Source: Steroidobacteraceae bacterium (GTDB lineage: Bacteria > Pseudomonadota > Gammaproteobacteria > Steroidobacterales > Steroidobacteraceae). Taken from it: 64,000 nucleotides of DNA. The stretch is from positions 9,380 through 73,379 of the forward strand of contig DATLSG010000016.1 in NCBI GenBank assembly GCA_035534275.1. Reading direction: 5' to 3'. The notes under the pieces were generated by a model that worked only from the letters and a program-made list of their open reading frames with translations, was not told where the DNA came from and ran no database searches. The position numbers and the translations under genes were made by a program. Shown piece by piece: positions 5,688 through 38,374 of this stretch (positions are counted from its first letter, which is position 1; each line of letters begins with the position of its first letter).

Positions 5688-5726
5688 AGATCGATTGCGG
5701 CACGCCGATGAGTTAGAGGTTCGGCA

Positions 5727-6164
5727 TCACACCGCCGCCCTTGCTAGCGACGCCGCCAGTTTGTCGAACGTTCCGTTCCAGCCGTTGTTGTGACCGTCGC
5801 GGCGTTCGACATCGGAAAAGCCCTCGTGGTGAATCATCATCTCGGTTCCGGTGCCGACCGGGCGGAACGTCAAGGTAACCAGTGTCTCCCGCTCTGCGTG
5901 TATCCACGTCCAGGTGAACGCCAGCTTCGTCGGTCGCACGATCTCGCGATAGACACCTTCGACGGTCAGTGGTTCGTCATCGGGTCGGTGCATGACAATG
6001 CGATAACGGCCGCCTACTCTTGCCTCAAGCAACTTGATTTCGCCCCTAATCGCAGCCGGTCCGATCCAGTCGCCCCAGGCCCGGCTCAGCCAGGCGTCGA
6101 ACACACGCTCCGGCGGCGCCTCAAAACGGCGGGTGATCTCCAAAGACAGGGCAGCGTCAATCAT
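5727..6164 (-). CDS. SRPBCC / AHSA1 (Aha1-like START fold) family protein
   Basis: 145 aa. LEITRRFEAPPERVFDAW...LTVEGVYREIVRPTKLAFTW is typical of ArsR-linked SRPBCC proteins. Its ATG overlaps the arsR-like stop (ATGA). Confidence 0.8.
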   Translation of the reverse strand: MIDAALSLEITRRFEAPPERVFDAWLSRAWGDWIGPAAIRGEIKLLEARVGGRYRIVMHRPDDEPLTVEGVYREIVRPTKLAFTWTWIHAERETLVTLTFRPVGTGTEMMIHHEGFSDVERRDGHNNGWNGTFDKLAASLARAAV

Positions 6165-6484
6165 CGTCGATTCCTTCTTGCTTGTTTCAAGTGTTCATCC
6201 AAGCGGTCGAGACTTTCTCGCCAAAAGCGAGAATAGAAAGCCAGCCAGTCATTGGCGCTCTTCAGGGCCCCAGCCTTGAGGTGGCACCGCATGTGCTGGC
6301 CGTCGCGGATGCGCGTGATCAGCGAAGCGCCATCTAGGACCTTCAGATGGCGGGAAATTGCAGGCTGCGAAATGGCGAAGGGTTCCGCTAGTTCACCTGC
6401 CGTGGCTTCGCCGAGCGCCAAGCGTGCGAGGATCGCGCGTCTGGTCGGATCCGCGAGGGCGGAAAAGGTACGGTCCAGGTTCAT
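6161..6484 (-). CDS. ArsR/SmtB family transcriptional regulator
   Basis: 107 aa. FSALADPTRRAILARLALGEATAGELAEPFAISQPAISRHLKVL is a winged-HTH signature. Confidence 0.9.
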   Translation of the reverse strand: MNLDRTFSALADPTRRAILARLALGEATAGELAEPFAISQPAISRHLKVLDGASLITRIRDGQHMRCHLKAGALKSANDWLAFYSRFWRESLDRLDEHLKQARRNRR

Positions 6485-6500
6485 AACTTAACGCGCATGT

Positions 6501-6522
6501 TATATAACTAATCAGTTATGTA
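6501..6522. promoter_or_regulatory. candidate ArsR operator (inverted repeat)
   Basis: TATATAACT-AATC-AGTTATGTA. The core ATAACT/AGTTAT arms are perfect. It is AT-rich in a GC-rich context and lies 17 nt upstream of the arsR-like start. Confidence 0.4.
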
Positions 6523-6822
6523 CAAGGGGTCATTGACACTGTTTTGTGGCGGCGACCTGGTGCGCATCTCGGACGGCGGAGCGTGATGGCGTGAACGATC
6601 CTCAATTTTGTGCGGCGCGATCGGTTGCCTGCCGAGCCCCTCTTGATCGTGGCGTTCGAGATGGCAATGCTGCATATTCAAGCATATGGCTCGGCGGAGC
6701 ATCGGCGGCGCCAATCCGGCGTTGCCGTCGAATGTCCTGGGGGTTGCCGACTCCGCGGATCCAGACCGTGGTGCTGCGCTTGGGCTGCTTGCGATCCGAT
6801 AATCCAAACGGGAGAGGCGACG

Positions 6823-23381: not shown

Positions 23382-25481
23382 TTATTCGGACGCCGGTATC
23401 GTGATCATCGCGATCGTTCTTTGGCCGAGCAGCGCGCCGGGGCCTGGGTCGTTGATTTTCACGTAGAATCGCGTCGGTTCGAGCCGTGTGGGATCTGAAA
23501 CGATTGGAATGAACAGGCTAAGGGTGCGTCTGCCCGCCTTGATGTGCGCAATGCGGGCAGCGAATCCCGTGAAGTCCTTTCCGGCAGCCGCCGTTCCAGG
23601 TTCGGTTCGCCACATGAAACTCACCGTGCGGCGCCAATTGCCGCTTCGCCGGATCACAATCTGAGCAAATGCGCCGCCCCGTGCAACCTGAATCAGATTG
23701 GCCGTCAACTCAATGCGCGCGAGCGCCGCACGGCCAGTCAGAACGCCGCGCCTGGGGCCGCGTGCGCGAGCGCCGAGGTGCGCCTTCGTTTCGATGGTCG
23801 CAACCGGCCGGCCGGCACTGCGGCCGCCGTCGCGCGGATCTCGCCCATTCTCGAGGCGGTTCGCGGACACCATGTCGCCATGGACCGGCGCCAGGTGCAC
23901 AGTGATGTGGTCGGGCGCATGATTGCCTGAGGCGGTGGATCGGAGCAATTCGTGCCACGCGCGCACGATCACTTGATGGGAGCGTGCGACATCCCGGCCC
24001 AAGCTGGTATGCATAGCCGCCGCGGACGGGACGATCGGTCCGTTGGCATTTGTCATCCATACGCCGCCCGCGGTCAACAGAATCAGCGCCGCCGAGAGGG
24101 CCACCAGGAGCCCCGGCATACGCCGGCGTGGCGGCACCGTCAGCAGCGCGGACAGCTTCGGCAAGGGCCGCATTGCCGTGGTTGAAGCGAGCCGATGCAC
24201 CCACTCCGCGACATCCGAAGGGCGACGGTCGCGCCGCCAATCGAGCCCTTCCCGCAGCGCACTCCATTGGTCTGCGGTCAGTTCGGCGGGGCGGACTGGA
24301 CTCCACAGGGCGGCACGCGCTTCGATCGCGGTGCGGTTAGCGAAAGGATGCTTTCCCGAGAACAAAAAATACGCGACACAGGCCAATGCGAAGACGTCGT
24401 CGCGCGTGTCTGGCGTCCGGCCTTCGAAGACCTCGCAGCTTGCATAGCTCGGCGCTGCTATGAAATTCGAGGCTGCCGGAACCAATCCGGACGTCGATGC
24501 GGCGCCCATCACTCGATGGGCGGCGCCGAAGTCCAAAACACGCACCTCGCCGTTGCCGGTGAGAAAGATGTTTTCTGGATTGATGTCGCCGTGCGCGATG
24601 CCGCGCGAATGAGCGTGCGCAAGCGCGGCACCGACATCCCGAATGACTGTGTGGGCGTGCGCTCTATCCAGTGCCGTGCCGTTGCGCGCGCTCAAGATTC
24701 GGCCCAACGGGGCTCCCGTGAGCAATTCCATGGTAAAGAACGCCGTATCGCCATCGCGGTCGAATTCATGGACGCGCACAATGTTTGGGTGGGAAAGCGA
24801 TCGCAAATGCACGAACTCGGTCAACAATTCACTGATCAATTGCGCGCGTCGGGCGACCTCGCAATGCAAGATCTTGATGGCCAATCGTCGACCGTCTTCA
24901 TCGACGCCGACCAGATATTGATCGATGGCCTCCCATATCGTGCCCGTACCACCGCGCCCGACGATCGCCAGCAGGCGGTAGCGGCCGCGCAGGACGTCCC
25001 CAGGGGCCAAGTCCCCTGCGATCTCGTCCACGTTTGCGGGGGCCCCCGCGGGGGAATCAGGCGCGGATTGCTCGGCCGGGGCCGGTCGTGGCGCCGGTAT
25101 CTCCAACGGCGCGTCGATCTGCACCGCGGGCGCTCGACCGGCGCGTTGCAGCAGCGGCACACTGATGCAACTGCTTTGCTGTCCGCGTACCAGGAGAGCG
25201 CCCAAATACGATTCGGCTTGCTGATACACCGCGTGGCGTATTCTTCCGAGTCGGTAGTACTGGTCGATCACCGACAAGATCTCGCAGGTCTCCTCCGGGG
25301 TGGATTTCACCAATGCGCGCACTTCTCGCAGAAAGGCGTGCGGATCGTTGAAGTCGGCGACCAATGCGTCGATGCGCGCCCGCATTGTGGGCGACGATTC
25401 AGCCGTCGAAGGAATCGGATTGCCGGGGTTGGCCGCTGCGCTCATCTTTGCATAGTTACGCAACAGGGCGCGTGGCGCCAT
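23382..25481 (-). CDS. transmembrane Ser/Thr protein kinase with an extracytoplasmic Calx-beta-like domain
   Basis: Kinase motifs GRGGTGTIWEA, AIKIL, HGDINPENIF and DFGAA. One TM segment LLVALSAALILLTAGGVWM. C-terminal FMWRTEPGTAAAGKDFTGF... fits a Calx-beta pattern. Confidence 0.8.
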   Translation of the reverse strand: MAPRALLRNYAKMSAAANPGNPIPSTAESSPTMRARIDALVADFNDPHAFLREVRALVKSTPEETCEILSVIDQYYRLGRIRHAVYQQAESYLGALLVRGQQSSCISVPLLQRAGRAPAVQIDAPLEIPAPRPAPAEQSAPDSPAGAPANVDEIAGDLAPGDVLRGRYRLLAIVGRGGTGTIWEAIDQYLVGVDEDGRRLAIKILHCEVARRAQLISELLTEFVHLRSLSHPNIVRVHEFDRDGDTAFFTMELLTGAPLGRILSARNGTALDRAHAHTVIRDVGAALAHAHSRGIAHGDINPENIFLTGNGEVRVLDFGAAHRVMGAASTSGLVPAASNFIAAPSYASCEVFEGRTPDTRDDVFALACVAYFLFSGKHPFANRTAIEARAALWSPVRPAELTADQWSALREGLDWRRDRRPSDVAEWVHRLASTTAMRPLPKLSALLTVPPRRRMPGLLVALSAALILLTAGGVWMTNANGPIVPSAAAMHTSLGRDVARSHQVIVRAWHELLRSTASGNHAPDHITVHLAPVHGDMVSANRLENGRDPRDGGRSAGRPVATIETKAHLGARARGPRRGVLTGRAALARIELTANLIQVARGGAFAQIVIRRSGNWRRTVSFMWRTEPGTAAAGKDFTGFAARIAHIKAGRRTLSLFIPIVSDPTRLEPTRFYVKINDPGPGALLGQRTIAMITIPASE

Positions 25482-25868: not shown

Positions 25869-26150
25869 CTAATTCGGCGGATTGCTCGATTGACCGTCGC
25901 GCGATTCGCCCTGGTGAGCCATCTGCACCTGCCTCTGCCGCATCTTCATTTCCCGCTTGCATTCCATTCTCATATGGCTCATTGACTCGCGGCCATTCTT
26001 CGCCTTCTGATGCTCCATGCAATGACTCATCATGTGGCGTTTCTGCATCATCGTCATGTGCGTCGCCGTCATGTTGGAATCACCGGCCACGGCGTAGCTG
26101 GCGAACGCCACCACGCCTGCCAATATCATCACAGCGGATCTATGGTTCAT
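25869..26150 (-). CDS. small secreted Met/His-rich protein (possible metal binding)
   Basis: 93 aa. Signal peptide MNHRSAVMILAGVVAFASYAVAG. The mature part is rich in M/H/K/R (THMTMMQKRHMMSHCMEHQ...SMSHMRMECKREMKM). GGAG lies 6 nt upstream of the ATG at 26150. Confidence 0.5.
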   Translation of the reverse strand: MNHRSAVMILAGVVAFASYAVAGDSNMTATHMTMMQKRHMMSHCMEHQKAKNGRESMSHMRMECKREMKMRQRQVQMAHQGESRDGQSSNPPN

Positions 26151-26364: not shown

Positions 26365-26706
26365 TTACGGAGCTTCTTCGGAATCCGGATGGATCACGCC
26401 AAATTGCGCTGGAACGCTGGCATAGAAGAGTCGAATTCGCTCACCCTGGATCAATTTCAGGAGCTTTTCGGCTTCTTCGCCCGTCACGATGAATTCCACC
26501 TCGATTGCCAGCGTGCCGGCAAGCTCGAAGAATTTCGCCTCGTGCACGCGATGGTGGCGCCCGAAGCCGGCCATGGCCTTGAACGCCGAACCGCCGCGAA
26601 CGCCTAGCTTATTGGCCTGAACCAGCAACCATTCCCAGGCCGGATATCCGTGGATGCGCTCGTCCTCATGCACGTAGAAGCGCAAATAGGAACCTTCCAT
26701 TGCCAT
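26365..26706 (-). CDS. DUF190 (PII-like) protein, a family commonly linked to crcB
   Basis: 113 aa. YLRFYVHEDERIHGYPAWEWLLVQANKLGVRGGSAFKAMAGFGRHHRVHE is a typical DUF190 core. Confidence 0.8.
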   Translation of the reverse strand: MAMEGSYLRFYVHEDERIHGYPAWEWLLVQANKLGVRGGSAFKAMAGFGRHHRVHEAKFFELAGTLAIEVEFIVTGEEAEKLLKLIQGERIRLFYASVPAQFGVIHPDSEEAP

Positions 26707-26980
26707 TCCCCCCTGTCTGAAGGACCGCTCGTCGACGCACCGCGATTCTGATCCAGGCGACGGTGCCGATGCCAGCGAAAAACACCAGCACCGATCCCGG
26801 CAAATGAATCGGGGCTTGCGCGACGATCCACAGGTGGCGGCCCAATTGCTGCAAGCCGACCGGTTCGACCGAGAAGGTCGAGAAGGCGGTCAGTCCGCTG
26901 CAAAAACCGGCGATCGCCAGCCAGCGGCAGTGCACCGCCAATGCCGGGAACGCGGCAAAGACGGCGACGATGACGCTCAA
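26666..26980 (-). CDS. crcB: CrcB/Fluc fluoride channel homologue, apparently lacking TM1 and most of TM2
   Basis: The Phe-box motif GFCSGLTAFSTFS (canonical GFxGGLTTFSTFS) sits only about 26 aa from the ORF start. TTG start overlaps the upstream stop (TTGA). The upstream sequence in this frame is charged and not TM-like. Confidence 0.7.
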   Translation of the reverse strand: MSVIVAVFAAFPALAVHCRWLAIAGFCSGLTAFSTFSVEPVGLQQLGRHLWIVAQAPIHLPGSVLVFFAGIGTVAWIRIAVRRRAVLQTGGNGNGRFLFALLRA

Positions 26981-28959
26981 CGCAAGCTCAGCGCGAGGAT
27001 GCCGATCAGCAGTGCGCCGATCATCGCCAAATAAAAGTTCAGATCGCCAGACTGCAGGGCGCCCAACCTGCGGGCGAGGCGCGACACTCCGCGCCGGATC
27101 GGCGTGAACACCAGCGGTCCGAAGACATCGGCGACGTCATGATTCAACTCGACCTTGCGGATGAAGTAGACGACCGTGCGGTGTTCGCGCGCGGTATCGA
27201 GTGTCGGGCGGTAGATGAAACTGTAGAACGTGCGCATCGCATTCGCGAACGTGAGCGACGTGGTCGCGGCGCGGTGCGCCTCTTCCCGCATTCCGCCGTA
27301 CCACACCCGCGCGCTGCGTACGGCGTGCCGCCGCAAATTGAGCAGCAGCAGCAGCGGCAGGATTGCCAGCAGCGGCGTGACCAGGATCAGTTTCGTCGGC
27401 GAGATGAACGCAAACGTATCGGTCAGCGGTACGAGCAGCCAGCCATGCGACATGGCACGCGCGCTGTGGGCGCCGAATTGCCGGAAGGTCGCCGCGTCGA
27501 GCGCGCCGAGCCAACGGGGCAAGCCCACGGCGGTGGCCGCCACGGCGAGCCCGAGGACTAAGGCGGCAAAGCCGTGACGAGCGCCGATGCGCGGTGCATC
27601 GCTCGGATCGGATGCGCCGAGCAGACCGATGCCGAACGCTTTGACGAAGGTCGCGAGCGCGACCGCGGCGGTGAGCGCGATGCCCGCACCGGCCAGGGCG
27701 AGCGTCACGCGACCGGCCACAGTGGTCAACTGGAAACCCTGAAACAGGGTCTGGAATGTGAACCACTCGGTGACGAAGCCGATCTGGGGCGGCATCGCCG
27801 CGAGACTCATGGCGGCGAAGAGGGCGCCGATCCCGAAGCCCCAGGGGGCCCGACGCAGCCAGCCGCGCTGTGCAATCCGGTAGCTGCCGCCCGCGGTAAA
27901 AACGCCGTCCGCGCAGACAAACAGGCCGCCCTTGGCGAGTGCGTGCCCGGCGAGGTGGAGCATGGCCACGGTCCAGGCGAGGCCCGCCAGCAGCCCTTGC
28001 CCGTCGGCGCGAAATATCAGGCACGCACCGAGTGCGGTCACGGCAATTCCGGCGTTCTCCGCGGAAGAAAAGGCCAGAAGACGGCGCCAGTCGTCCTGTT
28101 GCAAGGCGTAGAGGACCGCAAGAACCGCGGATAGCGCGCCCGCCGCCGTCACCAGGACGCCGAGAGTGAAGATCCCCGCGCCGTTGCCTGGAAGCCAATT
28201 GACCAGGCCGCGCGACAGCGCGAAGAATGCGGCATTCAGCACGACTCCCGATAAGATCGCGCCCGACGCGCCGCTGCCGGTCGCGTAGGCTCCCGGAAAC
28301 CACTCATAGAAGGGCAGCAAGCCGAGTTTTGCGCCGAAACCGATCAGCAGCAGGACGCCGATCCACACTTGCGCTCCCGCCGAAAGAGACGGCGCGACAG
28401 ACTTAAACCCGTCGAATGCGAGGCTGCCGCCGGCGTGACGCGCGAGCAGCAGCAACGCGAGCAGGATCGCGACCGCTCCCACCTCCAATAGCGCGAGCAT
28501 GAACATGGCGCTGGGCCCGGGGTGCGATGAGAGGCGTTCGGAGAGAATCATCACGGCGCCGCCGAAGCTCATCAATTCCCACGCGAGCAACAGCGAATAC
28601 CCGTCCTGCAGGCCGAACACGCCGACCGCGCCGAGCATCGACATCGTGGCACCGGCGATCCAACCCGATCGGCGCGTGCACACCGGCGTGTTCACCCACA
28701 CGGCGATTGCCGCCGGCGCCAGTCCGAACCCCATCAGCCACAGCGCACCGCTCGTGTAGTGCAGCTGCACTCGCTGGCCGGCGAGCGCGAACCCCAGCGG
28801 CCACGCCGCTGCGCCCTGCGGCAGGGCAATCACCGCGGCCGCGACTCCAACGGCAGCGCCGAGGCCCGCCAGCCATCGCGCCGGGGTATCGGCGCCGCCC
28901 ATGGCGAGCAACAGTCCGCCGAAAAGCGAAGCGGCGCTTATGGCGATGGCTTCAAGCAT
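26977..28959 (-). CDS. antiporter-like membrane subunit (HyfB/HycC/NuoL-like) of the Ehr-type complex
   Basis: 660 aa and polytopic. Proton-conducting-transporter core (WLPGAYATGSGASGAILSGVVLNAAFF..., AFSSAENAGI, HALAKGGLF). HyfB/HycC-like C-terminus LQSGDLNFYLAMIG. Confidence 0.85.
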   Translation of the reverse strand: MLEAIAISAASLFGGLLLAMGGADTPARWLAGLGAAVGVAAAVIALPQGAAAWPLGFALAGQRVQLHYTSGALWLMGFGLAPAAIAVWVNTPVCTRRSGWIAGATMSMLGAVGVFGLQDGYSLLLAWELMSFGGAVMILSERLSSHPGPSAMFMLALLEVGAVAILLALLLLARHAGGSLAFDGFKSVAPSLSAGAQVWIGVLLLIGFGAKLGLLPFYEWFPGAYATGSGASGAILSGVVLNAAFFALSRGLVNWLPGNGAGIFTLGVLVTAAGALSAVLAVLYALQQDDWRRLLAFSSAENAGIAVTALGACLIFRADGQGLLAGLAWTVAMLHLAGHALAKGGLFVCADGVFTAGGSYRIAQRGWLRRAPWGFGIGALFAAMSLAAMPPQIGFVTEWFTFQTLFQGFQLTTVAGRVTLALAGAGIALTAAVALATFVKAFGIGLLGASDPSDAPRIGARHGFAALVLGLAVAATAVGLPRWLGALDAATFRQFGAHSARAMSHGWLLVPLTDTFAFISPTKLILVTPLLAILPLLLLLNLRRHAVRSARVWYGGMREEAHRAATTSLTFANAMRTFYSFIYRPTLDTAREHRTVVYFIRKVELNHDVADVFGPLVFTPIRRGVSRLARRLGALQSGDLNFYLAMIGALLIGILALSLR

Positions 28960-29770
28960 GCGCCTCTCCCGGCGCGATCCGGCCGCCGCGGACGCGTTGC
29001 GGTGCGCGCTCCATGAGGATCAGCAGTGCGTGAATGATCGCGGCCGGGTTCGGCGGGCAGCCGGGCAGATATACATCCACCGGCAATTCACCGTCGAGTC
29101 CCCGGCCGCAGGCGTAGCCGCCGCCGTTCGTCCCGCCCGAGACCGCGCAGGTGCCGACCGCCATCACGAAGCGCGGTTCCGGCATCGCTGCGTACGTCTC
29201 ACTCAGCGGTCCGCGCATCGCGTAGGTCACGGGGCCGGTGACCAGCAGCAGGTCGGCGAAGCGCGGTGACGCGGTGAAGAAGACGCCCAGGCGGTGCAGG
29301 TTGTAGTACGGATTATTGAGCGCCTGCAATTCCGATTCGCAGCCGTTACAGGAACCGGCGTCGACGTGCCGTACGTGCAGGCTGCGGCCGAAAACACGCC
29401 GAATGCCGGACCTCAATGCCTCGCCGGCAGGCGATTCCACCGCTTCGTTCCACAGAAGATCTTCCCGCCGACGCACGCCGAACGCCCAGTCCGCGGAGCT
29501 CGTCAGCGCGCCGGTCGGGCAGACCTCGACGCACAACTGACAGGCCACGCAGCGCCCGTAGTCGAGCGCCACGCGCAAGGGCGATGCCGATTCGGTCAGC
29601 GTAATCGCCTGCGGCAGGCAGGCGTCGGCACAGCGCCGGCAGCCCTCTTCGCATTTGCTCGCCTCGAGGCGCGGCATGCCGAGTACTCCTTGCTGCCCGT
29701 CCGGGCCAGATCGAGGCCACGCAGTGCTCACCTTGCCTTGGGTCAAACCGAACAGCGTCCACAGGGGCAT
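28952..29770 (-). CDS. fused 2x[4Fe-4S] ferredoxin (HycF/NuoI-like) and NuoB/HycG-like small subunit
   Basis: N-terminal CEEGCRRCADAC and CVACQLCVEVCP. C-terminal part has VDAGSCNGCE, GTCAVSGG and LPGCPPNP, which are the four proximal-cluster cysteines. GGAGG lies upstream of the ATG at 29770. Confidence 0.85.
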   Translation of the reverse strand: MPLWTLFGLTQGKVSTAWPRSGPDGQQGVLGMPRLEASKCEEGCRRCADACLPQAITLTESASPLRVALDYGRCVACQLCVEVCPTGALTSSADWAFGVRRREDLLWNEAVESPAGEALRSGIRRVFGRSLHVRHVDAGSCNGCESELQALNNPYYNLHRLGVFFTASPRFADLLLVTGPVTYAMRGPLSETYAAMPEPRFVMAVGTCAVSGGTNGGGYACGRGLDGELPVDVYLPGCPPNPAAIIHALLILMERAPQRVRGGRIAPGEAHA

Positions 29771-29788
29771 GGCAATACCTCCGCTCGT

Positions 29789-31279
29789 CTATCGGTCGCA
29801 GCCGGCTATCGTGAGGCCGAAACTCGCCTCATTGATTGCGTAATCCATCATGTTGCTCTCGTGTACAGTGAACGCGAACACCCGCCAGTTCGAAAAGCTC
29901 GGGGATTTGATCTTGACCCGTGCCAGGCGCCCGCGGCCATCGACATGCACCGAGTAGTACAGAGAGCCGCGCGGCGATTCGCACCAGCCGATGCCCTCGG
30001 CGCCCGGTGCGACCTCACACACGCTGCGGATCGGACCGTCGGGCAGGGATTCCAGCGCACGTTCGATGAGCCGGACGCTGCGATGTATTTCGGCGATGCG
30101 TACCTGCTGGCGTGCGTGGGCGTCGCCGGCCTGCCGCACGGCGATCTCGACCGGCAACTGCGGATACGCGGCGTACGGTTGGTCCTGGCGCAGGTCGCGC
30201 TCGAGCCCCGAGGCGCGCTCGACCGGACCGGTGGCGCCTTGGTCGAACGCGAGCTTGCGGCTGAGTACGCCGGTCGTGATGAGCCGATCGAGGTGCGACG
30301 ACGTCGACTCGAGCATCTCGGCGTACGCGCCGAGTTCGGCATCCAGCGGGCCCAGGGCATCGAGCAAACCCGCGAGCCGCGGCATGCGCCGCAATCCGCC
30401 GGGAGCAATCAGGCCGCGCAGCAGACGGTTGCCGGTCGCGCGGCCGTTGATCTGCTTCGCGAGCTCCTCGAGGTACTTGCCTTCGGCTTCGCCGACTTTG
30501 AGCGTGGTCGCATGACATAGATGGCCAAGGTAATGCAGGTGGTTGTAGAGTCGCTCGAGCTCGGCGAGCAGCACACGCAGCCAGCGTGCGCGCGCGGGCA
30601 CCGCGCAGCCCGCCGCCGATTCGAGCGCCTGGCAATAGGCGAGCGCATGGGCGACGCTGCCGACCCCGGATACGCGCTCGGCGAGCACCGCGCCGAGCTC
30701 GGGCGCGAGTCCCTCGAATCGCAGCTCCATGCCGCGGTGCTTGAAGAATAGCTGCGGGTGGTAGTGAACGATGGCTTCGCCGAGATAATAGAAATCGAAC
30801 TGCGCGGACTCGACTACGTCGGCGCGCACCGGGCCGAACGGCAGTATCTGCACCTCGCCCGAGGTTCGGCCGGCAATTTCCGGCAGAGGCGGCGGCGCCG
30901 GCGTGTAGCGCACGGTGGCCCGTGAGCCGGGCAGCAAAGGCGGGACTGAGGCCTGCGCGCCCGGCAGAAGCACGAGCGGTCTTGGCTCCGGCAGGTTTTC
31001 AAAATGCAGGCCGCACAGATCGGTGACTTCCCGCTCGTACCACGACAGCAGCGGCGCGATCGCGGCGAGACTGGGTGTCCCCTCCGGACCCGGACGGCAA
31101 CGCCAGATCCGCATCGCTTGCGTGCCGCGATGAATCAGGTACCGGAGCTCCGGCGTCCCGGCCTCGCGGTCCGGGAACCAGGCATAGAGCATCTGCAGGC
31201 GTTCGCCGGCGCCGACCGCGTTCTCGCAGCGCCGCTGCAGATCCGCCACCGCCACGTCTTCGAGTTGCGGCGCGCTCAT
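29789..31279 (-). CDS. NuoC-NuoD/HycE-like 'large subunit' lacking the [NiFe] cysteine ligands (Ehr-type)
   Basis: 496 aa from the ATG at 31279, which overlaps the upstream stop as ATGA. L1 motif is ERVSGVGSVAH versus hydrogenase R-x-C-G-x-C-x-x-x-H. The C-terminus is GLTIAGCDR-stop versus D-P-C-x-x-C-x-x-R. The 881-aa track ORF is an upstream extension overlapping the previous gene. Confidence 0.85.
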   Translation of the reverse strand: MSAPQLEDVAVADLQRRCENAVGAGERLQMLYAWFPDREAGTPELRYLIHRGTQAMRIWRCRPGPEGTPSLAAIAPLLSWYEREVTDLCGLHFENLPEPRPLVLLPGAQASVPPLLPGSRATVRYTPAPPPLPEIAGRTSGEVQILPFGPVRADVVESAQFDFYYLGEAIVHYHPQLFFKHRGMELRFEGLAPELGAVLAERVSGVGSVAHALAYCQALESAAGCAVPARARWLRVLLAELERLYNHLHYLGHLCHATTLKVGEAEGKYLEELAKQINGRATGNRLLRGLIAPGGLRRMPRLAGLLDALGPLDAELGAYAEMLESTSSHLDRLITTGVLSRKLAFDQGATGPVERASGLERDLRQDQPYAAYPQLPVEIAVRQAGDAHARQQVRIAEIHRSVRLIERALESLPDGPIRSVCEVAPGAEGIGWCESPRGSLYYSVHVDGRGRLARVKIKSPSFSNWRVFAFTVHESNMMDYAINEASFGLTIAGCDR

Positions 31280-32799
31280 GGAACGGCCTTGCCCGAGAGT
31301 TGGGCGGCGACGACCGAAAAATAGTGGGAGATGGCCTGCGGCCACCATAGTCCCAGTACCAGCAGGGGCACGAGCGCCAACCACATCGGCAGCACGCACC
31401 AGACGCTCTCGCGCACCGGTGCGCGGGCGGCCCCCGCCGATCCGCCCGTCTGCGCACCCGCCGGCGCCGCGGTGTGTCCGCCAAAGTACATCGCGCGGAA
31501 ATGATCGAGGAAGCCGACGAAAATCACGACCAGCAGCGGCAGCATCACGAACACGGCCCAGGCGTTGACCCCTGCCAGGCCCGCACGCATGATCGTAAGT
31601 TCGCTCAAGAACAAGCTGAAGGGCGGCGCCCCGGTGATCGCCACCGCCCCGGCGAGCCAAAGGAGCCCCGAGGCCGGCAGGGAGCGCAGCACGCGGTGGA
31701 TGCGGCTGATCCGCTTCGTGTGAAATGCCTGCATCGTGTTGCCGGCGCCGAAGAACATCAGCGACTTGTTCAAGGAATGCCCGAGCATGTGATACAGCGC
31801 GCCCGCGATCCCGAGCGGCCCGCCGAAACCGAAGCCCAGGGTCATGATGCCCATGTGCTCGACGCTCGAATAAGCCATGAGACGCTTGATGCCGCGCTGG
31901 CGCACGATGAACAGCGCGGCGATGAACAGCGAAAACGCGCCGATCGAGACCACCACGAGGCGCGGCAGGGCTCCGAGACGGCCTCGGTCCGCGACTTGGA
32001 GAAAACGCACGATTCCGATCATCGCCGTATTGAGCAGTGCACCGGAAAGCATCGCCGACACCGGCGCGGGTCCCTCGCTGTGGGCATCCGGCAGCCACGT
32101 GTGCATCGGCGCGAGACCCACTTTGGTGCCGAAGCCGATCAGCACGAGGAGAAACGCGGCGAGTGCGACGGTCGGGTTCAGCTGCGGTGCGACGGTGCGC
32201 AGGGCCGCCCAAGTCAAGTCGTAGGTGGGGCCCATGCGCAGGCTGCCCGCCCAATAGAACAGGATGATCCCGAGGAGCGCCAGGCTGATCCCCGCGGAAA
32301 CCACGACGATGTATTTCCACGCGGCCTCGACGCTGTCGCGGCGGAGCTCGAAACACACGAGAAACGTGCTGACGAGCGTCGTCAGTTCGATCGCGATCCA
32401 GTACACGCCGATGTTGTTCATCAGCGGACCGCACAAGGTGGTAAGCGCGAAACCGGCGAAAAGTGCATAGAAACGATGCAGGCGGCCCGCCTCATCGAGT
32501 CGGCGCATGTAGCCGATCGCATAGATCGACGAAAGCAGATACACGCTCGCGACACTGAGCAGGACCCAGGCGCCGAGCGCGTCGACGATCAGGTAGCCGT
32601 GCCAGAACGTCAGTGTCCTCACGAGTGCTCGCGGCAGCAGCAGCAGCACGGCTGCAAGGACCGAGACGGCCGCGGTCAGATTGAGGTATTCGGCCGGCCG
32701 CGGCCGCCTCGCGAGCAAACAGCCCAGCACTGCGGCGAGCGGTGCGAGGAGAATCACCCCGAGCAAACCGCCCACGATCCGGTCGTTCGCATCCATCAT
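31276..32799 (-). CDS. antiporter-like membrane subunit (HyfF/NuoN/NuoM-like)
   Basis: 507 aa from the ATG at 32799 (ATGA overlap). Contains GLAPMHTWLPDAHSEGPAPVSAMLSGALLNTAM and MAYSSVEHMGIM motifs. Confidence 0.85.
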   Translation of the reverse strand: MMDANDRIVGGLLGVILLAPLAAVLGCLLARRPRPAEYLNLTAAVSVLAAVLLLLPRALVRTLTFWHGYLIVDALGAWVLLSVASVYLLSSIYAIGYMRRLDEAGRLHRFYALFAGFALTTLCGPLMNNIGVYWIAIELTTLVSTFLVCFELRRDSVEAAWKYIVVVSAGISLALLGIILFYWAGSLRMGPTYDLTWAALRTVAPQLNPTVALAAFLLVLIGFGTKVGLAPMHTWLPDAHSEGPAPVSAMLSGALLNTAMIGIVRFLQVADRGRLGALPRLVVVSIGAFSLFIAALFIVRQRGIKRLMAYSSVEHMGIMTLGFGFGGPLGIAGALYHMLGHSLNKSLMFFGAGNTMQAFHTKRISRIHRVLRSLPASGLLWLAGAVAITGAPPFSLFLSELTIMRAGLAGVNAWAVFVMLPLLVVIFVGFLDHFRAMYFGGHTAAPAGAQTGGSAGAARAPVRESVWCVLPMWLALVPLLVLGLWWPQAISHYFSVVAAQLSGKAVP

Positions 32800-33476
32800 C
32801 CCACCAATCGGCGCAAGTCGTGAGCGCTCGACGTCCCCGCGTGCAGGAGGAGGTATCGGACCAGCACACCGAAGCATGCGACCACGACGAGCAGGTCGAA
32901 GAGGATCACGAGTTCGATCAACAGCGGCATGCCGGGCACCAAAATCTGGGAACCGAGGAAAATGCCGTTCTCCAGTACCAGGAGACCGAGAATCTGACTG
33001 ATCACCTCGCCGCGCACGGCCAGCATCAGGAAACCGATCAGCTTCATCGACAACATGACGGTCAACGCGAGCACGGCCACGCTACCGGCGATCCCCAAGG
33101 AAATGCCGACGTGATCGGCGACGACGAAGGCGAATATCACGAGCAGCGCGCCGACCACGAGGCTAGAGCTCGGCGAGAGCCGCTCGTGCAGTTCGCGGTC
33201 CACATTCATCTGGCGGACGATGCGCAGGAGCAGGTAGGGCAGCAGCAAGCCGCGAAACAGCGCCGTGAGGACGGCGATCAGATACAGTTCGGGATAGTGT
33301 CCGTAATAGCCGATTGCCACGGACAACAGTGCGATCAACCAGGATTGCACGGCGAAGGCGAGCAGATAGTCCTTGAGCCAGCGCGATCCGAGCATCACGA
33401 ACGCAAGCAGCAGGCTCGCGATCGCGAGGAGGCTGAAGAGCGATGCGGCGAGCGGCGGCAGATGCACGGCGAACAT
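32796..33476 (-). CDS. HyfE-like small polytopic membrane subunit (NuoK-related)
   Basis: About 226 aa and very hydrophobic (LFSLLAIASLLLAFVMLGS..., LVLENGIFLG...). It occupies the HyfE position between the HycD-like and HyfF-like genes. Confidence 0.7.
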   Translation of the reverse strand: MFAVHLPPLAASLFSLLAIASLLLAFVMLGSRWLKDYLLAFAVQSWLIALLSVAIGYYGHYPELYLIAVLTALFRGLLLPYLLLRIVRQMNVDRELHERLSPSSSLVVGALLVIFAFVVADHVGISLGIAGSVAVLALTVMLSMKLIGFLMLAVRGEVISQILGLLVLENGIFLGSQILVPGMPLLIELVILFDLLVVVACFGVLVRYLLLHAGTSSAHDLRRLVG

Positions 33477-33480
33477 GACG

Positions 33481-34422
33481 TCAACGCAATTGGTTGGCGA
33501 CGATCGCCAGCACCGCAAGCAGGAAAGAGGCGGCCAACGGCTCCTGATAGCGGAAATAGCGCAACCGCGACTGGACCGTCTCGACGAACACGACCGCGAG
33601 TGCGACGAACGAGAACTTGCCGAGCAACGCCGCGGCGGCGCCGACGGCGCCGATCGCGGAGCCGTGGTGCGACAGCCACCAGGGGAGCAGGAGCACGTTG
33701 CAGAAGATCGTATAAAGGATGAACTGCTTCATCATGGCGGCCCACTTCAGCAGTGCGAGCAGCGGTCCCGAGTATTCCAATATGCGCGCCTCGTCGATCA
33801 TGTAGACCTCGATGTGCGTGCTGGAGTGGATCGGCAGGCGGTCGGTCTCCACGAGCAGCAAAATGAAAAAGGCCGCCACCAGGAACAGGTGCGCGGGACC
33901 CCAATAGACCGCGGGTTGCCCGGCCAGAAGGTGGTTCACGACGAACGGCAACATGGCCTTGGCGAGCAGGGTGATGCCGACGAAGACCAGGATCAGGGTG
34001 GGTTCGGCCAGGATCCCGAGCATCACGGCACGCGATGCGCCAATGCCGCCATATGCGCCGCCGGAATCCAATCCGGCAAGCGTGATCATGAACGAACCGA
34101 GCGTCAGGATGAACCCGCCACCAAGGATGTCGCCCATGTCGGACAAGGGCAGCGGATAGTCGGTCAACACGGGGATCAGGATCGGCACCGTCAGCATGCA
34201 GGTGAACGCGACGACCGGCGCGATCCAATAGATGAAGCTCGCCGTCTCCGGGACGACCGCTTGCTTATGCAACAGCTTCCACAGGTCGCGGTACGGCTGC
34301 AGGATCCCGGGACCCTGCGCGCGCTGCACGCGCTCCTCCCACTGCAGGATCACTCCCTGCAGCAGTGGCGCGAGCAGCATCACGCTCAGTACTTGGGCGA
34401 TTTGCAGCAGGATGTCGCGCAT
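33481..34422 (-). CDS. HycD/HyfC/NuoH-like membrane subunit
   Basis: 313 aa from the ATG at 34422. MRDILLQIAQVLSVMLLAPLLQGVILQWEERVQRAQGPGILQPYRDLWKLLHK is the characteristic HycD/NuoH N-terminus. AGGA lies about 10 nt upstream. Confidence 0.85.
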   Translation of the reverse strand: MRDILLQIAQVLSVMLLAPLLQGVILQWEERVQRAQGPGILQPYRDLWKLLHKQAVVPETASFIYWIAPVVAFTCMLTVPILIPVLTDYPLPLSDMGDILGGGFILTLGSFMITLAGLDSGGAYGGIGASRAVMLGILAEPTLILVFVGITLLAKAMLPFVVNHLLAGQPAVYWGPAHLFLVAAFFILLLVETDRLPIHSSTHIEVYMIDEARILEYSGPLLALLKWAAMMKQFILYTIFCNVLLLPWWLSHHGSAIGAVGAAAALLGKFSFVALAVVFVETVQSRLRYFRYQEPLAASFLLAVLAIVANQLR

Positions 34423-34507
34423 CACGCCGTCCTGCGCTGCAGACGAACGGCCGGCGCGAACTGCGCACCCGGGGCCCGAACGGTCGATCGGTTGAGTGTC
34501 GCCGCCA

Positions 34508-34532
34508 CCAAACCCTCTCTTCATCCAGAGGT
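34508..34532 (-). terminator. weak hairpin plus U-containing tract downstream of the riboswitch aptamer (possible expression platform)
   Basis: RNA is CCUCU-GGAUGAAG-AGAGG followed by GUUUGGU. The stem is only 5 bp and the U tract is poor. No clear competing pairing with the aptamer 3' strand was found. Confidence 0.25.
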
Positions 34533-34540
34533 CGGATTAT

Positions 34541-34593
34541 GGTAGGCATCATCGGCCGAGAATCCGGCGGTTCGAGGAGGAATGCCATCTCCC
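34541..34593 (-). promoter_or_regulatory. fluoride riboswitch (crcB RNA motif) aptamer
   Basis: Minus-strand RNA is GGGAGAUGGCAUUCCUCCUCGAACCGCCGGAUUCUCGGCCGAUGAUGCCUACC. P1 is GGAG/CUCC around AUGGCAUU. The conserved GAACCGCC is present. P3 is GCCG-GAUUCU-CGGC. The conserved GAUGAUGCCUAC is present. The pseudoknot is GGCAU:AUGCC. Confidence 0.85.
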
Positions 34594-34601
34594 GCGGATT
34601 C

Positions 34602-34630
34602 AATATACTAGCTGCGACAGAGCGCGGCAA
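34602..34630 (-). promoter_or_regulatory. sigma-70-like promoter driving the riboswitch leader
   Basis: On the minus strand, TTGCCG (34630-34625), a 17 nt spacer, then TATATT (34607-34602). The -10 ends 8 nt before the first aptamer G. Confidence 0.55.
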
Positions 34631-34710
34631 GCCGCGCAACGCGAGCATGCAAACGGATCACCGGACATTGTGCAGGCAACTCGCCGTAGCGCGCCGCGGC
34701 GTGAGAGAAT

Positions 34711-36117
<1,407 letters not shown>

Positions 36118-36298
36118 TCATAACCGATGGCTGCCGCCGCAGTGCCGGACGGCGATCGCGCCGGCGATGCACCTGAGGAATCTGTCGCAAACCGGCCCGA
36201 AGGCCGCCTGACGGCTAGCGCGGGAGCTACCGTGCGATGAGTGCTCGCGCGCGACCGCAGTGGCCGCGCGCGAGCAGTGGGCCTTTAAACCGCGGCGA

Positions 36299-38374
36299 TC
36301 AGTTTTCGCCCCGGCCTCGTTGTTCACCGCCGAACGCCTGCACGAAGTTCCATCCGTTCGGCGTGCCGACACCCGTCGCTGGATCCCAACCCGGGCCCGT
36401 CTGCAGCGTCGAGTCGGTGCCAAAGGTCAGCACGAACCAGCGGGTCGAGAAGGGACTGTTGTACAGGGCGCTGACGAAGGTCGGCAGGCCCTGCAGGGGC
36501 AGCGCGAGATCCCATGGCGTGAGATTCTGCGTGCCGTTCGAATCCTCGATCACACCGCTCACGTTGGAGCGCATATCCGGCGTCCCGTCGATGTCCGTGA
36601 TCGCGCCGGGAGGCAGGCGATACAGATACGGTGCCGCCTGTCCGAGCGCGTGCCCGGCACGCTGGGCGGCGATGCCCCAAAGTGCCGAGAACATCGGGGT
36701 CGCGAGGCTCGTGCCGCCGATCACGCCGATCGACTGATCGCCGAGGTTGTCGACGCTCTCGACGATTTCGACACCGGTGTACGGGTCGGCTACCCAGGAG
36801 ACGTCCGGGACCAGACGCCGTTGTCCGCCGAGACCGCGCTGGAACGACGGCAAGCGGTAGACGTTGCTGGTTCCGCCGCCGCCGCCATAGACGAAGCCCT
36901 CATTGTTCGGCGGGTCGATCGGCGGGTTGCCGAGAGAGGCCTTGTCGGCCACCTCGGTGATGTTGTTGCCCCAGCTCGTCTGGAACAGGATGTGCTGATT
37001 TCGATCGAGCGCGACGCTGACGCCGCCGACAGCGGTTGCGTACGGCGAGCTCGCCGGATAGTTCACGTCCTGGTAGCCGAGGTCGTAGGTCTCGTTGCCC
37101 TCGTCACCGCTCGCGAAGTTGACGGCGATGCCCCGTGAGTTCGCGAGCATCAATATCTGGTCACCTGATTGGCGCAGTTGCACGTCGGTGCCGGATTCGT
37201 AGCCCGACCAGCTGTTCGAGATCGCGACCACGCCCGGTTGCATCGCGGCCATTGCGATCGCGGCGAACAGGTCATCGAAGGAGTTCGTCGGCGCGACCAC
37301 CAGCAGGATATTCGCTCCCGGCGCAATTGCGTGTACCCACTCGACGTCGAGTGTCGTCTCGTCCGCCCAGCCCGCGTTCGGATCACCCGAGAACGGCGAT
37401 TCGGTCGAAGTGCCGAGCACGGTCAGATTGGCCGGCGGCAGGCCCATCACCTGGGAGAATGTCGCCAGGTCGGCCTGCACGGTCGTCGAGCCGTACGCGT
37501 CAACGATCGCGATCGTCTCACCGGTGCCGTCGAGCCCGACCCGATACAACGGACTCAGGTTGTACGCGGTCTGCAGGTCGCTCGGTTGGTAGCCGCAAGG
37601 CGGCAGCGATCCGATTGCTTGGTTGTTGATGTCGGCGCCATAGCGCAGCCCCTGATAGGTCGCAGTCGCACCGTTGCCGCTGAATGTCTGCGTCGTCGGC
37701 GGATAAAAGCACTGTGCCGAGAAGAACAGACCCTTCGCCCCGGCCGTGAGCGGAATCATCCGCGGGCTTGCGCCCTCGGGGTCGCTCGCGCGAGCGACGT
37801 TCGGCTTCACGAAGCCGCGCGCCGGCGCCCGAGCGACGTTCGGCCGGGCACCGAGGCTGGATATGCCGCCGATCGAGGCTACCAGCGGGGCAATCTCCCC
37901 GGGTATCGTCGGGCTCGTCGCGCTGGCGTGAAACGTCTCGCCGTTCAGCGTGTAGCGATGCAAAGTGACGTCGAACGCGGATTCGACGTTCGCGGCCGTG
38001 CCCGACGCTCTGACGAATAGATTATTCGGCCCCACATCGGTCACCGCGAGGCCCCGCGACTTCAGAAAATTGCTGACCGCCGCGACGTCATTGGCGCTCG
38101 GTGCATTGCGCGCGGCGATCTGCGCGTTCGTCAACCAATTCGCCGTCCCTCGCTGCTGTTCGGCGAGCGTGCGCTGCAGAGCCGCCTGGTCATGCAGTTT
38201 CAGCCAGACCGTGATGCGGACGGCGCTCGATTGACTCATGGGTCCGAGATCCGTCGCGCGCGCGAGCGGCGATTGCGCGGAGATTCCGCCATTGCTCGCG
38301 TGCGCGAGCATGCCGCACGCCGAGAGCGAAGCGAGACAAACGGCGGCAATACGAACTATTTTTCGGTTTAGCAT
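36299..38374 (-). CDS. S53 (sedolisin/kumamolisin-type) serine peptidase with pro-enzyme activation domain
   Basis: Signal peptide. Pro-domain (RITVWLKLHDQAALQ...). Catalytic-domain motifs SGDEG and GGTSLATPMFSALWG. ATG at 38374 is preceded by AGGGG. Confidence 0.85.
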   Translation of the reverse strand: MLNRKIVRIAAVCLASLSACGMLAHASNGGISAQSPLARATDLGPMSQSSAVRITVWLKLHDQAALQRTLAEQQRGTANWLTNAQIAARNAPSANDVAAVSNFLKSRGLAVTDVGPNNLFVRASGTAANVESAFDVTLHRYTLNGETFHASATSPTIPGEIAPLVASIGGISSLGARPNVARAPARGFVKPNVARASDPEGASPRMIPLTAGAKGLFFSAQCFYPPTTQTFSGNGATATYQGLRYGADINNQAIGSLPPCGYQPSDLQTAYNLSPLYRVGLDGTGETIAIVDAYGSTTVQADLATFSQVMGLPPANLTVLGTSTESPFSGDPNAGWADETTLDVEWVHAIAPGANILLVVAPTNSFDDLFAAIAMAAMQPGVVAISNSWSGYESGTDVQLRQSGDQILMLANSRGIAVNFASGDEGNETYDLGYQDVNYPASSPYATAVGGVSVALDRNQHILFQTSWGNNITEVADKASLGNPPIDPPNNEGFVYGGGGGTSNVYRLPSFQRGLGGQRRLVPDVSWVADPYTGVEIVESVDNLGDQSIGVIGGTSLATPMFSALWGIAAQRAGHALGQAAPYLYRLPPGAITDIDGTPDMRSNVSGVIEDSNGTQNLTPWDLALPLQGLPTFVSALYNSPFSTRWFVLTFGTDSTLQTGPGWDPATGVGTPNGWNFVQAFGGEQRGRGEN

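Follow-up and report, generated by a model that had tools for sequence, protein, structure and literature searches.

A conserved fluoride aptamer upstream of an Ehr-type operon and its probable action through a leader open reading frame

The minus strand of a 64,000-nucleotide (nt) stretch from a Steroidobacteraceae bacterium (contig DATLSG010000016.1 of assembly GCA_035534275.1; the whole stretch is called the window below) contains a fluoride riboswitch aptamer in front of an operon whose first gene is hycD. The aptamer belongs to the Rfam family RF01734 and occupies a conserved position before orthologous operons, its 3' tail is shared with a competing hairpin, and a conserved reading frame runs from this hairpin to a stop codon that overlaps the hycD start. 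We consider it rather probable (about 0.6) that the RNA serves as a fluoride ON switch for an eight-gene unit (six Ehr-type genes, a decayed crcB and a DUF190 gene) and that it acts via the leader open reading frame (ORF).

In the proposed mechanism transcription would begin at about 34595 from a TTGCCG/TATATT promoter. With fluoride bound (as a Mg2+ cluster), the pseudoknot and the tertiary pair A34552/U34544 would keep the 3' tail in the aptamer. In the absence of fluoride the tail would pair with 34513..34504, closing a 44-nt hairpin (34547..34504) that would bury the Shine-Dalgarno (SD) sequence AGAGGG and the GUG start of a 28-codon leader ORF. Fluoride would free this ORF for translation. 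Ribosomes crossing the structured 85-nt spacer would then open the hairpin around the SD sequence of hycD, end at the UGA overlapping the hycD AUG, and re-initiate there. The translated leader would also be shielded from Rho.

For the comparative work 80 related loci (designated by L numbers where a single locus has to be named) were taken from species-representative genomes. They were selected with the large-subunit protein of the downstream operon (60-73% identity) out of 434 relatives found, and represent Steroidobacteraceae and other Gammaproteobacteria, Alcaligenaceae, Xanthobacteraceae and other Alphaproteobacteria, and Acidobacteriaceae. The closest genomes, as judged by the large subunit, are Steroidobacteraceae-like Gammaproteobacteria, the identity being at most 73%. 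An identical large-subunit protein is encoded on metagenome contigs (ENA ERZ27256814 and ERZ27256801, JGI 3300031672).

The aptamer and its promoter

The elements of the aptamer and of the promoter preceding it are the following.

34536..34601, minus strand: fluoride riboswitch aptamer RF01734, core 34593..34541, assigned with covariance models and by covariation on 133 aptamers
34592..34589 with 34579..34576, minus strand: P1, GGAG paired with CUCC
34568..34565 with 34558..34555, minus strand: P3, GCCG paired with CGGC
34586..34582 with 34549..34545, minus strand: pseudoknot, GGCAU paired with AUGCC
34552 with 34544, minus strand: tertiary pair equivalent to A40/U48 (A34552 with U34544), intact
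34602..34630, minus strand: predicted sigma-70-type promoter, -35 box TTGCCG at 34630..34625, 17-nt spacer, -10 box TATATT at 34607..34602

An initial annotation of the window, made by reading the letters, had recognised a crcB motif between 34593 and 34541 of the minus strand; the sequence found there is indeed GGGAGAUGGCAUUCCUCCUCGAACCGCCGGAUUCUCGGCCGAUGAUGCCUACC. When scanned with Rfam, the check that the annotation had suggested, the segment 34601..34536 (minus strand) matched RF01734 (Fluoride) over the complete model (positions 1-64 of 64) with 51.5 bits (E 2.3e-11), well over the gathering score of 34. RF01734 was the sole Rfam 15 family to reach its threshold in the window. A covariance model (R1) built from 34 aptamers gave 159 matches in the 80 related loci and scored the window aptamer at 68.7 bits. 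No second fluoride aptamer was detected between 22000 and 40000 with Rfam at relaxed thresholds, nor with model R1 run with the filters off, for which the next best match had 9.2 bits.

P1, P3 and the pseudoknot lie at the positions assigned to them in the annotation, and all of their 13 pairs are standard in the window. The single-stranded AACCGCC and the GAUGA..CCUAC tail, which had also been described, are both present. The loop of P1 had been placed correctly, but it consists of 9 nt (AUGGCAUUC), not 8. Across the 133 distinct related aptamers that made up the covariation set, 97.5% of the cells in these 13 pairs are paired, and compensatory changes were found in nine pairs, two of them in the pseudoknot. 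The observed values of pairing and covariation were reached by none of 500 shuffles, and they collapsed when the partner strands were slid. Among the near-invariant segments of the ligand site (GAUGG, AACCGCC, GAUGA and CCU), the window has the majority base at all columns conserved to at least 95%, except column 92. In its P1, P3, pseudoknot, AACCGCC and GAUGA..CCUAC elements the RNA resembles the fluoride riboswitches of the Bacillus cereus crcB gene and of Thermotoga petrophila (PDB 4ENC).

The position of the aptamer was compared in the 69 related loci in which at least about 3300 nt were available upstream of the large-subunit gene. In all 69, which span Gamma-, Beta- and Alphaproteobacteria and Acidobacteriota, an aptamer is present on the operon strand 3270-3710 nt upstream of that gene; in the window the distance is 3318 nt. 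The covariation and this fixed position indicate that the aptamer is real, conserved and in a conserved place. We regard it as practically certain, from these comparisons, that the RNA is a genuine fluoride aptamer, and the window RNA itself would be expected to bind fluoride. The annotation had also proposed that the aptamer controls the gene downstream, and its recurrence before the orthologous operons supports this proposal: very probably it is an ON switch for the downstream operon.

The annotated promoter was recovered by a promoter scan as the only minus-strand site in 34200-34900 (TTGCCG-17-TATATT, 9 of 12 positions matching; shuffled sequences would give 0.1 sites). The motif CTTGCCG-N17-GTATATT is kept at the same distance from P1 (GGAGATGG) in about a dozen relatives (L001, L002, L004-L006, L010, L013-L015, L020, L022, L026 and L028), in which the surrounding sequence is otherwise dissimilar. 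This conservation supports the promoter and a transcription start near 34595, just before P1, where it would be expected.

The competing hairpin and the leader ORF

Between the aptamer and hycD two further elements were distinguished.

34504..34547, minus strand: switch hairpin, GCC-ACCA-AAUCC-CCUCU paired with AGAGG-GGUUU-UGGU-GGC, -17.2 kcal/mol
34422..34508, minus strand: predicted leader ORF (an upstream ORF, uORF), SD AGAGGG at 34518..34513, GUG at 34508..34506, 28 codons (MAATLNRSTVRAPGAQFAPAVRLQRRTA), UGA at 34424..34422

The switch hairpin takes up the pseudoknot bases G34547, C34546 and C34545 together with the SD sequence and the GUG start of the leader ORF. The weak hairpin with GUUUGGU that had been noticed in the initial annotation exists, but it is only the inner part of this longer conserved hairpin, which overlaps the aptamer tail. 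In 64 of 68 orthologous leaders a comparable hairpin beginning in the tail was found, with a mean of -18.0 kcal/mol as compared with -8.9 kcal/mol when the downstream sequence was shuffled. The criterion missed the window, L002 and L004, where the hairpins begin at GCC, and L080; the consensus fold of the closest subgroup takes in the hairpin of the window. The 3' arm of the hairpin follows the aptamer tail: GGUGGC accompanies the tail AUGCCUACC, and GGAGUC accompanies the tail GACUCCU. Because the 3' arm changes with the tail, the fold alternative to the ligand-bound state is conserved, as expected for an ON switch. The ON logic and the sharing of the 3' tail between the aptamer and a competing hairpin are features of the fluoride riboswitch class. 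Unlike in the riboswitches of B. cereus and T. petrophila, the hairpin of the window buries a ribosome-binding site and is no U-tailed terminator.

The leader ORF was characterised on 64 distinct leaders, which are 58-196 nt long and almost without sequence conservation. (The leaders of L032 and L037 are longer, ~480-540 nt, and carry inserted coding sequence.) Stop codons are absent from the frame ending at the hycD start in 91% of the 64 leaders, whereas the corresponding values for the other two frames are 25% and 42%. An SD sequence and a start codon in the 3' arm of the hairpin, followed by an ORF stopping within -12..+7 of the hycD start, were found in 53 leaders. With shuffled spacers this combination occurred in 33.1 +/- 3.1 of the 64 leaders (maximum 41 in 200 trials), and deletion of 1 or 2 nt reduced the count from 53 to 8 and 6, respectively. 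The position of the ORF start is fixed in the relatives, the codon being ATG, GTG or TTG, and the length varies between ~17 and 50 codons. The stop codon overlaps the hycD start in the forms AUGA, GUGA or UGAUG; in the window it is UGAUG, the UGA of the leader ORF sharing its A with the hycD AUG. UUG at 34511 is an alternative start of the window ORF. In a partition-function model the accessibility of the SD-to-start region rose when the aptamer was locked in 44 of 52 leaders (Wilcoxon p 2.5e-7), and in the window it rose from 0.11 to 0.32.

The position 34422 had been annotated as the first ATG after the aptamer. An in-frame ATG at 34524 and ATGs within the aptamer do exist, but 34422 (or GTG 34425) is the conserved gene start, since the alignments of the orthologs begin at residue 1-2. 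For the same reason an N-terminal extension of HycD from ATG 34524 was rejected; moreover, upstream of hycD its frame stays open in no more than 25% of the leaders.

A paralogous operon in L022 has a leader of only 39 nt, in which the tail CCUACC pairs with the SD sequence GGUGG directly before the AUG of the gene itself. This short leader would point in the same direction as sequestration of the leader ribosome-binding site. Taken together, the comparative evidence points first to translational control through the leader ORF, and we favour this ORF as the expression platform. Its translation in the window and the coupling to hycD would follow from the position of the start in the hairpin and from the overlap of stop and start.

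The closest described mechanism is that of the Mycobacterium tuberculosis ppe2 leader, where a B12 riboswitch controls a translated leader ORF and PPE2 depends on this leader through termination-reinitiation (PMC11260477). There, and apparently also in the window, a short upstream ORF is the gated element. The ppe2 system differs in having another ligand and aptamer class, in being an OFF switch and in having been demonstrated experimentally, whereas the fluoride leader would be an ON switch and is deduced from comparative sequence. It would also depart from the norm of the fluoride class, as the gated gene appears to be the leader ORF instead of the first gene of the operon. In our literature search for fluoride riboswitches with a uORF or leader peptide, none of the ten papers listed mentioned a fluoride riboswitch. 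If the proposal is true, it would describe a new type of expression platform for the fluoride class. The conserved leader ORF suggests a terminator-free mode of fluoride riboswitch action in high-G+C bacteria, which bears on the prediction of regulation and on fluoride biosensors.

A number of observations weigh against control through the leader ORF. The leader peptides are not conserved in sequence across the relatives. With the start fixed, this is nevertheless what would be expected of a leader ORF that matters through being translated and not through its product. (That the leader ORF encodes a conserved small protein or an additional subunit was rejected, as the peptides share nothing beyond the residues encoded by the hairpin.) At 64% G+C long open frames are frequent, the shuffle null (33 of 64) is high to begin with, and the statistics overstate independence because the 64 leaders are phylogenetically related. 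The SD sequence of the window also belongs to a short inner stem (CCUCU with AGAGG), whose formation is possible in either state, the gain in modelled accessibility is modest, and the spacing between the SD sequence and the GUG is just 4-5 nt. Furthermore, an AGGA of its own lies 7 nt ahead of the hycD AUG, so that this gene may initiate independently. The aptamer has C34554 in place of a 97%-conserved U of a tertiary pair, so that its affinity may be lower. Finally, in alphaproteobacterial relatives the U-rich stretch after the hairpin could equally serve as the tail of a terminator.

This last point leads to transcription attenuation, in which the hairpin 34547..34504, or the inner stem 34531..34514 together with GUUUGGU, would be a weak or factor-assisted terminator whose formation is blocked by fluoride. 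Terminators overlap many crcB motifs (PMC2864571), the hairpin does overlap the aptamer tail, and GUUUGGU follows the inner stem in the window. In the alphaproteobacterial orthologs the hairpin is followed by 4-7 U; in L054 the sequence after it is UUAUUUUCU (a run of U). However, a pattern scan of 34200-34900 found no intrinsic terminator, in agreement with the absence of a canonical terminator reported in the initial annotation. In the window the U run is part of the 3' arm of the complete hairpin, and what comes next is GGCGGCGACAC, with no U tract. Close relatives such as L005-L012 lack any U run (GGAGUGGUAGUGCGC), yet the hairpin is kept. Fluoride aptamers associated with enolase genes in L009, L019, L027 and L031 precede hairpins with U-rich runs, indicating that the absence of a U-tailed hairpin is specific to this leader. 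A terminator would also leave the conserved open frame and the stop-start overlap unexplained. We therefore consider attenuation unlikely. An intrinsic terminator as the platform was rejected, as the scan gave no match and the fold of the whole leader is no stabler than that of shuffled sequences (z -0.40).

As suggested in the initial annotation, which had named Rho-dependent or non-canonical termination, the regulated step could also be termination by Rho within the ~100-nt leader, either directly, a rut site being exposed in the ligand-free fold, or by polarity on a leader that is not translated. The length of the leader and its lack of a canonical terminator would suit this explanation, polarity would come naturally from an untranslated leader ORF, and in many gammaproteobacterial relatives a C-rich stretch (GACCCGAGC...CCCGAGCC) follows the hairpin. 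Against it, the window leader contains as many C as G residues (30 and 30 in 82 nt) and shows no rut-like bias; its best C/G ratio over 40-60 nt reaches only the 80th percentile of the window, and the CCCGAGC element is absent from the window. As a primary mechanism, Rho-dependent termination would not need a conserved reading frame. We rate its chances as low as those of attenuation, and Rho polarity could be a secondary consequence of control through the leader ORF. The C-rich element itself, GACCCGAGC-N-CCCGAG(C/U)C, lies ~50-90 nt after the aptamer in the leaders of many gammaproteobacterial relatives (L005-L033) and is missing from the window; it may be a rut site or part of the leader-ORF spacer.

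The variant at 34554 (minus strand) distinguishes the window aptamer from the norm of the class. The Rfam consensus has U at this position, and the related aptamers have U in 129 and C in 4 of 133 cases. The remaining cases of C come from the L013 ortholog of the leader and from two L002 aptamers, which shows that C34554 is a rare recurring variant and not a sign of decay. By our own mapping of the numbering, 34554 would correspond to U38 of T. petrophila, the partner of A6 (here A34588). The reverse Watson-Crick pair A6/U38, which in T. petrophila sits beside the ligand site, and the tertiary pair A40/U48 were described in bioRxiv 10.1101/2022.05.19.492696. It is very improbable that the aptamer is a decaying copy at a fluoride-unresponsive locus, marked by the C at a 97%-U position and by a crcB gene lacking its first ~51 codons. 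Against decay, all remaining conserved positions, the three helices and the A34552/U34544 pair are preserved; L013 and L002, which carry the variant as well, are apparently intact loci; and the six genes of the complex are intact, as are the promoter and the leader ORF.

The regulated operon

The leader ORF, if it acts as proposed, would control an operon that begins with six genes for an Ehr-type complex.

33481..34422, minus strand: gene 1 (hycD), HycD/HyfC/NuoH-like membrane subunit, 313 amino acids (aa); PF00146, 116 bits; orthologs 75-89% identical, aligned from residue 1-2
32796..33476, minus strand: gene 2, HyfE-like membrane subunit, 226 aa; NF008556 (hydrogenase 4 membrane subunit), 55.8 bits, under the curated cut-off; no Pfam match
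31276..32799, minus strand: gene 3, HyfF/NuoN-like antiporter-type subunit, 507 aa; PF00361, 176 bits; best match hydrogenase 4 subunit F, under the cut-off
29789..31279, minus strand: gene 4, NuoC-NuoD/HycE-like large subunit without Ni-Fe site, 496 aa; aligned to 7z0s_E and 6cfw_L
28952..29770, minus strand: gene 5, fusion of a 2x[4Fe-4S] ferredoxin (HycF/NuoI-like) and a NuoB/HycG-like part, 272 aa; Fer4_7 and PF01058
26977..28959, minus strand: gene 6 (hyfB), HyfB/NuoL-like antiporter-type subunit, 660 aa; PF00361; hydrogenase 4 subunit B, 290 bits, under the cut-off

The order of the genes is identical in all 80 related loci. Gene 5 and hyfB share 8 nt, and 4-nt overlaps occur between several other genes of the unit. 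None of the subunits of the complex reached an NCBIfam equivalog cut-off. In group 4 [NiFe]-hydrogenases the Ni-Fe centre has four cysteine ligands, placed in an N-terminal RxCGxC and a C-terminal DPCxxC motif. The C-terminus of the gene 4 product reads GLTIAGCDR, where the alignment with the MBH of Pyrococcus furiosus (6CFW) has DPCL at the first C-terminal cysteine. Escherichia coli HycE (7Z0S), its best solved relative, reads RVCGICGFAH where the large subunit has RVSGVGSVAH. Of the four Ni-Fe cysteines three are thus gone and one is left, and the same was found in all 77 orthologs from the related loci in which the motif was read. The Fe-S cluster cysteines of gene 5 (NuoB-type and 2x[4Fe-4S], read from the translation) are kept.

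Ehr (energy-converting hydrogenase-related) complexes stand near the group 4 hydrogenases, are without the CxxC motifs of the Ni-Fe site and are of unknown function (PMC10284858). The large subunit being without three of the four Ni-Fe cysteines in every ortholog read, the complex was classified as Ehr-type and complex-I-like, not as a hydrogenase. Its subunits would fit the Ehr description: they are group-4/complex-I-like, the CxxC motifs are lost and the Fe-S subunits are kept. With Ehr complexes and with E. coli hydrogenase 4 and formate hydrogenlyase (7Z0S) it has in common the NuoH-, HyfE-, HyfF-, NuoCD/HycE-, HycF/G- and HyfB-like subunits. Within the unit 34422..26365 there is neither a formate dehydrogenase gene nor a hyp maturation gene. 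In all testable loci this clade is linked with fluoride aptamers, a connection that the literature collection searched does not give for Ehr complexes.

That the crcB motif occurs before 'formate hydrogen lyase' genes was reported in the first description of the motif in 2010 (PMC2864571) and again in a review of 2024 (PMC11139923). Both the riboswitch class and its pairing with formate hydrogenlyase genes are therefore already known. Less expected are the apparent leader-ORF platform, the non-hydrogenase nature of the complex and the tie to fluoride aptamers in every testable relative. In the literature collection searched, no paper joining an energy-converting hydrogenase or hydrogenase 4 with a fluoride riboswitch was found; for fluoride riboswitch and hydrogenase only general reviews were found. 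We give an even chance to the combined proposal that the switch gates a non-conserved leader ORF and, by termination-reinitiation, turns on a dedicated fluoride-stress Ehr-type complex without Ni-Fe. If this is true, a complex filed for 15 years as 'formate hydrogenlyase' would be a fluoride-stress Ehr-type complex, and Ehr complexes would gain their first physiological handle, e.g. ion pumping for fluoride export through Fluc or control of the cytoplasmic pH. Cultured relatives such as Pollutimonas, Candidimonas, Mesorhizobium montanum and Edaphobacter would allow Ehr function to be tested through a simple fluoride phenotype; carriers of the operon include Pollutimonas bauzanensis (L023), Candidimonas humi (L038) and M. 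montanum (L062).

A second, divergent copy of the six genes (38-46% identity) is present in L022 (14552..21575) and also in L018 (4918..7351). It has its own fluoride aptamer, in L022 the one with the 39-nt leader, and the large subunit of the L022 paralog has lost all four Ni-Fe cysteines.

Neighbouring genes and other observations

The aptamer is associated with genes of the fluoride response, two of them in the unit and one upstream.

26747..26968, minus strand: 5'-truncated crcB (Fluc) remnant, directly after hyfB; aligns to residues 52-125 of the CrcB of relatives
26365..26706, minus strand: DUF190 gene, 113 aa, with which the unit probably ends; PF02641, 66 bits; near crcB and fluoride aptamers in relatives
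34711..35976, minus strand: enolase gene, immediately upstream; 74-80% identical to operon-adjacent enolases in several close relatives

The crcB remnant matches Pfam CRCB with 35.6 bits over profile positions 37-103 of 103, the first ~51 residues being missing, and is 57% identical to the CrcB of L003. In L003, L004 and about twenty further loci an intact, full-length crcB comes after hyfB. As there is no other crcB in the window, fluoride is presumably exported by the product of a gene located elsewhere. In L054 (4254..4828) a DUF190 gene lies between the aptamer and hycD, and its stop codon overlaps the hycD start.

No aptamer was found before the enolase gene of the window, either with Rfam at relaxed thresholds, with model R1, or by reading 35950..36320. 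In many relatives (among them L005, L006, L010, L027, L031 and L033) another fluoride aptamer lies on the opposite strand, at a distance of ~100 nt. In L005 this second aptamer (6532..6592, minus strand) precedes a gene for a 261-aa P-loop AAA ATPase (5720..6505, minus strand; Pfam AAA_22); to our knowledge such an ATPase is not an established partner in fluoride regulons.

Two more ORFs were noted beyond the DUF190 gene on the minus strand. The first (25869..26150) would encode 93 aa with a signal-peptide-like N-terminus and a His/Met-rich tail (HMTMMQKRHMMSHCMEH...); it had no Pfam match and no homolog in the 80 loci. The second (23382..25481) encodes a 699-aa protein with a Ser/Thr protein kinase domain and a C-terminal Calx-beta domain.

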